NCBI GenBank assembly: GCA_951406725.2
Contig: OX597827.1
Location: 10,788,001 to 10,852,000, forward strand
Origin: Octopus vulgaris
Taxonomy: Eukaryota
DNA: 64,000 nucleotides
Reading direction: 5' to 3'
Each line of letters begins with the position of its first letter. The first letter of the stretch is position 1. Position numbers and translations under genes: made by a program. The notes beneath the pieces were generated by a model that saw only the letters and a list, made by a program, of their open reading frames with translations, ran no database searches and had not been told where the DNA came from. Below, in pieces: positions 14,342-28,110 of this stretch.

Positions 14342-14667
14342 AATTGAGATAGGGGTTGTAAATGCAACCCTCCATGGGATAACATATATCCAATATACTG
14401 CTAGTGAAGTACCCAGCTGTAAGATGTAATCTATACTTATATTTATATTTACTTATATTTATATTCTCTTTTATATATATTCTACTTATTATACAACATT
14501 ACTTTTTTATGTACACTTTTTTATGTACATTCATTTATGTACACTGATTTGTTCTGCTTTTATATCTAACCCTACAGTCTCTAATGTGGTGGTTTAATAA
14601 AGTATGTGATTGAGTATTATCTGGTAATTGATATTTGATTTAGATGTATTTCTCCATTTTCTAATCT

Positions 14668-14709
<42 letters not shown>

Positions 14710-14999
14710 TGAAGATACAGGAGGATCAGTTAATTATGATTTTATTCAGCATGTTCCCCTCTCAGATTCACACACTTATTTCAGCAGTCTTTCAAGTTTT
14801 CTAAGTCCTGTAAAAGAACTTGGAAGGTTGGGCCCCCCCCCAGCTAGGCCTCTGTGATACCCTTAAAGTCAGGAACTTTTCAGCAATTCCTGGTATGGAA
14901 TTTAAATATTAACAATGATTAAACCATGAAATAACTTTTCAGTTTTCAAAATGAAGCAAAACTAACAATAAGATGAAAAATAATATTATTATTATTATA

Positions 15000-15164
15000 G
15001 GCACAGGAGTGGCTGTGTGGTAAGTAGCTTGCTTCCCAACCACATGGTTCCATGTTCAGTCCCACTGCGTAGCATTTTGGGCAAGTGTCTTCTGCTATAG
15101 CCCCGGGCCGACCAATGCCTTGTGAGTGGATTTGGTAGACGGAAACTGAAAGAAGCCTGTTGTA

Positions 15165-15215
<51 letters not shown>

Positions 15216-15420
15216 ATGTTTGTGTGTCTGTGTTTGTCCCTCAAGCATTGCTTGACAACCGATGCTGGTGTGTTTACATCCCCGTCACTTAGCGGTTCAG
15301 CAAAAGAGACCGATAGAATAAGTACTGGGCTTACAAAGTATAAGTCCCGGGGCCGATTTGCTCTACTAAATGCGGTGCTCCAGCATGGCCGCAGTCAAAT
15401 GACTGAAACAAGTAAAAGAG
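15000..15420 (+). mobile_element. tRNA-derived SINE family A, full length
   Basis: Box A tggctgtgtgg, box B-like gttcagtccc, internal (TA)n(TG)n, tail cagcatggccgcagtcaaatgactgaaacaagtaaaagag; >12 copies in window. Confidence 0.9.
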
Positions 15421-15700
15421 TTTTATTGTACACTTCCAGATTATATTTGAAAACTTTTCACCTACATTTTTTAACTGCAAAGTCTTTGATCAGTTCCTCA
15501 AAATTAACCTTACATAACACATCTGCTTCTATACTTCATACAGCTTAGGCCTCCTGAATATTATTTTAGCAATTCCAAAGTGACATTTTGTGCTGTATGC
15601 CATTTTCCACATCTGTGGTGCCCTCTATCCTTTGATGCCCCTAAGAGCTTGTGGTGCACCTGAGCACTGTATACAATAATTTCATTATATTATATTATTT

Positions 15701-16124
15701 TAGAATGGTTGTATACTGTCAATTTAACGTGACAGTAGGGGATTACATCACCGCTGTTTAGCCCTAGGAAGCATCAACGCTTCCTGATGGCTTCGACACA
15801 TTTTTTTTTTCTGTGTCCTTATATATTTACGAAGGGGAGACAAATACCCCCAGCAGCCAGGCCTGCATCTAGAGACACTCATGTTTCAGGATCTTTGTCC
15901 ATCATCGGTCTAGGGGCAATGATGGACATAGATCCTGAAACATGCGTGTCTCTAGATGCAGGCCTGGCTGCTGGGGGTGTTTGTCTCCCCTTCATAAATA
16001 TATAAGGACACAGGAAAAAAAAAATGTGTCGAAGCCATCAGGAAGCGTCGATGCTTCCTAGGGCTAAACAGCGGTGATGTAATCCCCTACTGTCACGTTA
16101 AATTGACAGTATACAACCATTCTA
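15701..16124. repeat. 424-bp near-perfect palindrome (205/206-bp arms, 13-nt spacer); inverted pair of Penelope-like pLTR fragments
   Basis: 15701-15905 is the reverse complement of 15919-16124 with 5 substitutions and 1 indel by manual comparison. Confidence 0.95.
15869..15913 (-). ncRNA. Minimal type I hammerhead ribozyme motif (CCGAUGA core variant)
   Basis: cuaga-CCGAUGA-u gga caaaga ucc u-GAAA-caugagug-UC-ucuag: 5-bp helix I, 3-bp helix II, near-palindromic helix III, GUC site. Confidence 0.7.
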
Positions 16125-16555
16125 TCGCCCAACCACCGTACATATCTCTCTGAGATATTTAGAAATTCAATATTTCTATATTATTTTACTTAATGGTTAA
16201 TCTAGAGCTGCCCAAGATGCTGAGAACCCTTGTTCTAAAATGCATAAAAGAAGATGAATTTGATGTTCTAGAAATGTCCCTTTGTCTATGATTTATTATG
16301 AAATCTATTCTCTGCAGAAGTATGCTTATTAGTGTTTTTCTTCTTCAGAAATCTTGAAAATATTTCATCAACATGTTTTTCACCAATAGTTATTGATGAT
16401 AAACAGTAGTAAACATTTAAGCATAGAATAGATGTTACTAAAATCTCAGTGAATAATGTTACAATAGTGATCAGGGAAGCAAATCGGAAAAATCAGTGAA
16501 CTGAAGAACATATAGAATGTACCACAATAGAAAGTAACAAGGTAATATCGGTTTG

Positions 16556-17135
16556 GATGGATGGGTGGATGGGTGGGTGGATGGATGGATGGATGGATGG
16601 ATGGATGGATGGATGGATGGATGGATGGATGGATGGATGGATGGATGGGTGGATGGATGGATGGATGGATGGATGGATGGATGGATGGATGGATGGATGG
16701 ATGGATGGATGGATGGGTGGGTGGATGGGTGGATGGGTGGATGGATGGATGGATGGATGGATGGATGGGTGGGTGGGTGGATGGTTGGATGGATGGATGG
16801 ATGGATGGATGGGTGGGTAGATGGGTGGATGGATGGATGGATGGATGGATGGATGGATGGATGGATGGATGGATGGATGGATGGATGGATGTGGATGGAT
16901 GGGTGGGTGGATGGGTGGATGAATGGACGGACAGACGGACGGATGGATGGACAGATGAATCATTAGATGGATGGATGGATGGATGGATGGATGGATGGAT
17001 GGATGGATGGATGGATGGATGGATGGATGGATGGATGGATGGATGGATGGATGGACGGATGGACGGATGGACGGATGGATGGATGGACGGATGGATGGAT
17101 GGACAGATGGATGGATGGATGGATGGATGGATGGT
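16556..17135. repeat. (GGAT)n tetranucleotide microsatellite, ~580 bp
   Basis: Direct reading; GGGT and GGAC variant units. Confidence 0.97.
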
Positions 17136-17559
17136 CATGCATGAATGAAGGTAGTTTTTGAATTCAAGAATATGTCATTGACACAGAAAATGGATGCACA
17201 TTAAGGAAGAGTGAGGAATGACACCCCGGTGATTAATAAAGATAAGAAGTATGAAATGAACTAACAAGAAAGACACTACAGGATCACTTGTCATGCTAGA
17301 AATAACAACAAAAACAGTGTTGATATTGTTGTTGTTGTTCAACAGTCCTTTAGTCAATTCTGATCAGTTAAACCAATTATAAAAAATCCTGCTAATCACA
17401 AACATCCCATCTTTCAGGGGAAAATTAGCAGCGCATTGTGTGCTGTGTACTTCCATTTTTAAGGCAGCAAAGTGTAATTTGAGTGATTACTTAGCTGCTA
17501 TTTCTAGCAGGATGACTGACCATGTCAGGGCACCCAAGCTGTATGTATCTCCCCATGAT

Positions 17560-27581: not shown

Positions 27582-28110
27582 CTGTATACAGCTATGGTAC
27601 GACCACACTTGGAATTCGCATCATCAGTTTGGAATCCCTATCTTGCTCAGAACATTGACCTCCTGGAATCTGTCCAGAGACGTGCAACCAAACGCATACC
27701 CTCCATCAGACACCTACCATATTCTGAGCGCCTTGTTTCCCTGGGCATGGATTCACTGAAGCTCCGGCATCTGGCGACGGACTTGGTAAACACCCACAAG
27801 GTTATCAACCACCTCACCAACAACAACACTGAACACCTTTTTGATCTCCATGTGTCTAACACACGTGGACATGCCTACAAAGTCAGAAAACAGCACAGCT
27901 CCCATGACTTTCGGAAACATTTTTTCACACTCAGGGTTGCTGAAGCGTGGAATAAACTGCCTGCATCAGTTGTTGACTGCCATGACACTGCATCCTTTAA
28001 GGCCCTCATGCTTCCCGAAATCCGTCGAAACTACACCTGATTATATATACACTTTAGATGAGTTGTAGTGCACCTGAGCACTGTACACAATTATTATTAT
28101 TATTATTATT
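27582..28110 (+). mobile_element. 5'-truncated CR1/L2-group LINE: ORF2 C-terminus (to 28040), 3'UTR, (ATT)n tail
   Basis: VRPHLEFASSVWNPY..LESVQRRATK..YSERL..TRGH..FFTLRVAEAWNKLP..V..SFK motifs typical of the post-RT region of CR1-group LINEs. Confidence 0.92.

Follow-up and report, generated by a model that had tools for sequence, protein, structure and literature searches.

The palindrome analysed here lies in a 64,000-nt stretch of the Octopus vulgaris genome (contig OX597827.1, positions 10,788,001 to 10,852,000; hereafter the window, numbered from its first letter), and is probably a single insertion, flanked by a target site duplication (TSD), of a non-coding 357-bp repeat that carries a hammerhead ribozyme (HHR), the repeat having been mobilised in trans by the RT/GIY-YIG protein of a Penelope-like element (PLE) and the insert made of two cDNAs joined where they had stopped. 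Of the parts of this reading, the PLE-type origin is very likely, and we lean towards the two-cDNA route. The locus belongs to a published type of transposon debris, is in itself unlikely to be a working RNA device, and matters as a single data point from a family whose size permits counting. The regularities of that family, namely a rule of one end at each of two sites (A and B), a 12-bp TSD, correlated stops and the absence of any accumulation at the ribozyme, are relevant to how PLEs come to have inverted repeats and tails and to whether the hammerhead plays a part in this.

An earlier note, made from the sequence of the window alone, had described arms of 205 and 206 bp with about 97% identity and a 13-nt spacer. 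This was borne out by a scripted alignment, in which 200 of 206 columns match (97.1%) between 15701-15905 and 15919-16124, the arms differing by 5 substitutions and 1 indel in a T run and being separated by the spacer at 15906-15918 (the general repeat listing of the window, dominated by microsatellites, does not include the palindrome). The right arm begins at AUGA inside the hammerhead core, as the note had said, and so holds no complete core. Past this arm the family sequence extends a further 53 nt, which makes the element asymmetric, and the entire unit is enclosed by a 12-bp direct repeat whose sequence occurs nowhere else in the window. Since this TSD surrounds the whole and the tail reaches site B, the element is 15701-16177, a single asymmetric insertion (Table 1). 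The five junction bases were likely added at joining. The insertion target (15630-15700) is the AT-rich 3' end of another high-copy repeat, and a further family copy (L159) sits in the same repeat end.

Table 1. Features of the inserted element, in window coordinates.
Feature	Position	Strand	Remarks
Left TSD copy, 12 bp	15691..15702	+	last 2 nt common to the element's A end; 12-mer found twice in the window
Left arm	15701..15913	-	unit positions 147-357 in RNA sense; 5'-truncated; ends at site A
Type I hammerhead motif	15869..15913	-	U4C core 15908-15902; cleavage predicted between 15874 and 15873
Junction bases, 5 nt	15914..15918	no strand	match neither arm
Right arm	15919..16124	+	unit positions 155-357; begins inside the HHR core
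One-sided tail	16125..16177	+	positions 1-53 of the next unit; ends at site B
Right TSD copy, 12 bp	16177..16188	+	12-mer found twice in the window

In the AT-rich genome of 2.8 Gb, the left arm as a query returned 2679 first-look candidates, with full-length matches of 94-97% among the 40 scored. Head-to-tail dimers, some of them with two HHRs (L005/L039, L029), set the unit length at 357-368 bp; the window copy itself is not tandem. The non-coding unit has a GC content of 43% and a longest ATG ORF of 38 aa; a self-paired circular fold is predicted for it (z -3.7). In RNA sense, that is on the HHR strand, family copies terminate 3' at two fixed sites. Site A is position 357, site B falls about 55 nt beyond it, in the following unit, and the tail measures 53-56 nt across the family. 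No arm seen in the family exceeds 596 nt, about 1.7 units.

So that long arms would not be over-represented, sampling was anchored on exact patterns at the 3' end of the unit, with 100 of 204, all 52 and 100 of 210 matches listed for three anchor sets, the third of which gave 68 new places, 60 of them fetched. Once duplicates had been removed, together with elements lying within 80 nt of the edge of a locus, 205 were left and parsed, 171 of them in the anchored set; exact anchors favour younger copies, and BLAST ends may be off by a few bases. The build of the window copy, head to head with one arm ending at A and the other running about 55 nt further to B, is that of 97 of the 171 anchored elements. 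A further 18 are head to head with one end outside the bins, 52 are single-armed (some of these have short second arms below the score cut-off) and 4 are complex. Two A ends or two B ends were found in none of the 115 two-armed head-to-head elements (0/54 where AA could be sampled). A non-simple TSD of at least 9 bp, with a mode of 12 bp, flanks 54 of the 97 elements, as against 2.7% of 600 mismatched flank pairs, and the flanks are 84% AT.

Long terminal inverted repeats are also what a fold-back DNA transposon (MITE) would have, and an assembly artefact might be suspected where independent read support is missing, as at the centre of the palindrome, which is spanned by none of the listed read-contig pieces of four runs; contigs of these runs connect the tail to the unique right flank, with only 27-29 letters within the tail (below the 31-letter rule applied), which is only a weak hint. 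Both readings are extremely improbable. The MITE, which the earlier note had itself named as a challenge, is contradicted by ends that are unequal (A versus B), by centres that differ from copy to copy, by the 12-bp TSD and by the occurrence of the unit as direct dimers, and the family shows neither equal fixed ends, nor a conserved interior, nor a short fixed TSD. An artefact, in turn, is argued against by the six differences between the arms, by the TSD that spans the whole unit and by the 97 elements built alike. The arms of the window copy diverge by 2.7% (rank 19 of 86; family median 4.6%); judged by this divergence, the copy that the note had called young is younger than most, but not new.

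The proposal of a head-to-head PLE-type insertion is corroborated by the one-sided tail, the TSD, the AT-rich target and the HHR with a self-complementary helix III. In the accessible text of the literature, PLE insertions in rotifers have an inverted pLTR, a tail and a TSD of 8-10 bp (Arkhipova 2013, PMC3846280), PLE tails stand at one end with a (TA)n bias (Craig 2021, PMC8557442), and an anole PLE has two RT start sites, both strands extended and a dispensable HHR (Frangieh 2024, PMC11167929). Our insertions have the inverted truncated copy, the tail at one end and the whole-unit TSD in AT-rich DNA that mark an EN+ PLE product, and also share with those products, as far as these sources describe them, the head-to-head order with 5' truncation, the AT/(TA)n targets, the two fixed 3' ends and an HHR in the repeat. 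They differ in the length of the tail (53-56 nt here, 30-40 in the descriptions available) and of the TSD (mode 12 bp, against 8-10), and in a unit that has no RT/GIY-YIG ORF of its own, none lying between pLTRs as in an autonomous PLE, and no identified parent PLE. A literature search to which subscription papers were mostly closed found nothing relevant on Penelope twin priming, inverted copies and tails together.

The linked RT/GIY-YIG ORF that the earlier note had expected was found neither in the window, nor beside family copies, nor by homology to the unit at 70 sampled loci around GIY-YIG hits (150 of 6136 GIY-YIG candidates scored); PLE ORF fragments occur in 7 of 326 sequences, and none of them adjoins a family copy as its pLTR. 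As no autonomous partner was found at these 70 loci, mobilisation would have been in trans, by an enzyme that we infer. PLEs in which the RT and GIY-YIG frames are open do exist in the genome, with pLTRs and inverted copies. The flanks of single arms were clustered in the search for a parent PLE, which gave LINE ends and no PLE. A very young PLE family (L106-L112) has many open frames of 781 aa and, upstream of these, another ORF of 250-479 aa for which Pfam offered no convincing match.

The minus-strand type I hammerhead that the earlier note had recognised (helix I CUAGA/UCUAG, core CCGAUGA, helix II GGA/UCC behind a U-U mismatch, GAAA, helix III and UC) is the sole match of the type I descriptor in the window; the hammerhead model search suggested in the earlier note gave no Rfam match at E<=5 over 14500-17500. 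The family departs from the strict type I core (U4, with 10.1-11.1 paired), having C4 in 93 of 100 full copies and U-U at the base of helix II in 90, and one helix II pair alternates in these copies between A-U (67) and G-C (25). In 20 related, hand-picked sequences that include diverged subfamilies, 96% of cells are paired and 9 of 13 pairs have two-sided changes (6/6 in helix I, 2/3 in helix II, C3-G8 to U3-A8, none in helix III); the controls gave 0/500 for shuffles and 0-4 pairs when slid. The helix covariation on which the note had staked its reading is thus present, and the HHR is, on the evidence of the alignment, a conserved structure.

The term 'minimal', on the other hand, had to be dropped. 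With a helix II of 3 bp, a helix I of 6 bp with a predicted extension, and a helix III, the family HHR is by its anatomy canonical-type and not a min-HHR, which in the available text of Cervera and De la Pena (2014, PMC4209133) has a helix II of 7-8 bp, a helix I of 4-5 bp and a dispensable helix III. It resembles the PLE hammerheads of the same text in a self-complementary helix III suited to dimer folding, and opposite-strand pairs from truncated PLEs and U3-A8 core covariation are found both there and here. U4C is likely derived, because the diverged subfamilies mostly keep U4. Passages of Perreault 2011 (PMC3088659) describe hammerheads with U4C as cleaving far more slowly in vitro and the U-U below helix II as tolerated; both changes are described as compatible with activity, at the cost of slow or weak cleavage. 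Unrelated hammerheads elsewhere in the genome have U4C too (L080, L311 and L122/L123/L384/L385), the last four belonging to an autonomous PLE family whose relatives L383 and L387 keep U4; in this PLE family (L122, L123) the HHR has the same U4C, U-U and palindromic helix III as the unit.

In the window copy, helix I is down to 5 bp, and the palindrome of helix III, which the earlier note had called almost perfect and which is self-complementary in the family, is broken in the left copy by a C-to-A change at 15879; the predicted helix III dimer has -6.2 kcal/mol, versus -12.5 in the family. The HHR fold, at -3 kcal/mol, has to compete with a full hairpin predicted at about -390; a minus-strand transcript would begin with the complementary arm, and the plus strand has no full core. 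The window ribozyme is predicted to be inactive, buried in duplex. No RNA holder of the sequence was listed, which speaks neither for nor against its expression. The family HHR probably works as a slow dimer in source transcripts.

That the inversion breakpoint coincides with the ribozyme had been taken as meaningful, and the hammerhead could set this point either by self-cleavage that ends the template or by a fold that stalls the RT. Both arms of the window copy do stop in the HHR, and 9 of 27 at-risk elements stop at 142-166, between low bins of 2/29 and 1/18, as weak stalling at the 5' side of the HHR would predict. Over positions 142-191, however, the stop frequency (11 of 29 at risk) is not above that of the neighbouring stretch (34/63 in the preceding 50 nt, Fisher p 0.18; 3/18 in the next 50 nt, p 0.19). 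Most centres (68 of 97) lie downstream of the HHR and never reach it, 27 elements read through the cleavage site, an arm end falls inside the HHR in 12 of 97 elements and both ends do so in only 2, and only 2 of 194 arm ends come within 3 nt of the cleavage site. With so many centres short of the HHR and so few ends close to the cleavage site, there is no sign that the ribozyme sets the breakpoint, an idea to which we give very little credence in either form; its cleavage version is largely refuted, and HHR cleavage as the 5' limit of the template was rejected. Furthermore, both arms of the window copy cross the cleavage site, so that the template was uncleaved or religated, and HHR mutants leave anole PLE insertion unaffected in the accessible part of PMC11167929. 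The join inside the HHR in the window copy is most likely due to chance.

In the two-cDNA reading, staggered nicks about 12 nt apart would be made in AT-rich DNA, giving the observed TSD; one 3'-OH would start a cDNA at A and the other at B, about 55 nt downstream, giving the one-sided tail. Priming at two sites is suggested by the anole PLE, where synthesis begins at two neighbouring sites and both strands are extended. The template of both cDNAs would probably be a single uncleaved RNA, on which they would stop a short distance apart (in the window copy at unit positions 147 and 155, by accident inside the HHR), and repair would join their two 3' ends through microhomology or with a few bases added. 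The two arms have correlated 5' ends (rho 0.57, n=97), which lie within 45 nt of each other in 66 of 97 elements, against a permutation mean of 41 and maximum of 55. The A arm reaches further in 62, the B arm in 29, and they are equal in 6 (p 7e-4; median 14 nt). Correlated stops with A leading by about 14 nt suggest two cDNAs primed on one RNA; the 29 of 97 elements in which B reaches further count against this model, as do the 52 single-armed of 171 against a head-to-head model. The arms share non-consensus bases at 0.018 per site, versus 0.0047 in 300 permutations (maximum 0.0081; 86 elements with enough overlap), as would be expected from one source RNA, and gene conversion between the arms could also give them. 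An A>G excess among private substitutions (69 vs 41 T>C) was set aside, since subfamily differences from the consensus can produce it.

Alternatively, one cDNA could form a hairpin, be copied back and jump to a short second cDNA that supplies the tail, or there could be self-priming on an antisense template, as proposed by Arkhipova et al. 2013 (PMC3846280, in the text available). The short spacers and the usual lead of A over B would fit a loop, and the variants shared between the arms would fit copying. At the junctions the arms either overlap briefly or are separated by a few additional bases, and hairpins of the unit itself are repeatedly the place of joining, with centres at positions 209/223 in 5 elements and 273/273 in 3; the junction sequences do not tell two-cDNA joining from fold-back. 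Fold-back is nevertheless unlikely. An A-primed cDNA has no tail, so that most elements would require one more jump. Loops of 0-2 nt, too short to close a hairpin, are found at five centres (two of them on a natural hairpin), and the anole enzyme, according to the accessible text of PMC11167929, extends both strands and is modelled as a dimer.

Returning to two cDNAs, one might tentatively speculate, with somewhat more doubt than belief, that a dimeric RT-endonuclease nicks both strands 12 nt apart, that two RTs travel in file on one uncleaved RNA, the trailing one halting about one enzyme footprint (14-20 nt) behind the leader, that the cDNA ends are then joined, and that U4C is a selected brake which keeps the template intact. 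If true, such a sequence of events would account at a stroke for the head-to-head repeat, for the tail on one side and for the TSD, and the recurrence of U4C (in the family, L122/L123/L384/L385, L311 and L080) would be that of a selected brake.

The family also has what characterises a non-LTR retrozyme, that is, a non-coding unit within 150-450 bp, tandem type I HHRs, GC below 50% and a TSD above 4 bp. Its likeness to the metazoan non-LTR retrozymes, as described in the accessible text (Cervera and De la Pena 2020, PMC7229834; Li et al. 2026, 10.64898/2026.07.22.740005), lies in the non-coding unit of 357-368 bp with 43% GC and a type I HHR, in the head-to-tail dimers, in the TSD of more than 4 bp and in the predicted self-paired circular fold, and the U-U at the base of helix II matches the axolotl retrozyme hammerhead HHR_Amex2 as given there. 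In contrast to those retrozymes as there described, most copies are short head-to-head stubs, the longest arm is 596 nt and the core is U4C. No such octopus hammerhead family was found in the main texts of the literature searched; supplements may list cephalopod families.

A sister family (L318, L328, L346-L375; 2406 first-look candidates) has a U3-A8 core and forms dimers of about 360 bp; it shares the two-end build, its ends being separated by about 57 nt, and its tail end is similar, with a hairpin common to both families. At L031-L036 (C29), arrays of 2.3-4 kb combine an almost complete unit, bearing a 26-nt fold-back, with an adjacent fragment of a non-LTR element, which we presume to be of the restriction-endonuclease type; a Pfam search gave no match for this fragment.

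A single spot just upstream of the hammerhead is the insertion site of two LINE families (L171:1729-7390, L241:1743-7212, L037:5218-6834, L286-L345): a 5.5-kb APE+RT element, which we take from its resemblance, without a tree, to be Tx1-like, and a 1.6-kb element with ORF1 only. The HHR core lies 31-54 nt downstream of the LINE in 16/30 and 19/30 loci, query loci and some duplicates included. Insertion upstream of the HHR is also seen in diverged HHR families, the two LINEs are stacked at the same site in L312 and L339, and some LINE-HHR composites then moved whole with A/B ends. The literature search found no paper linking Tx1 and retrozymes. Elsewhere in the window, an open frame of 152 aa (27582-28037) resembles what we assume to be a C-terminal fragment of a LINE RT.
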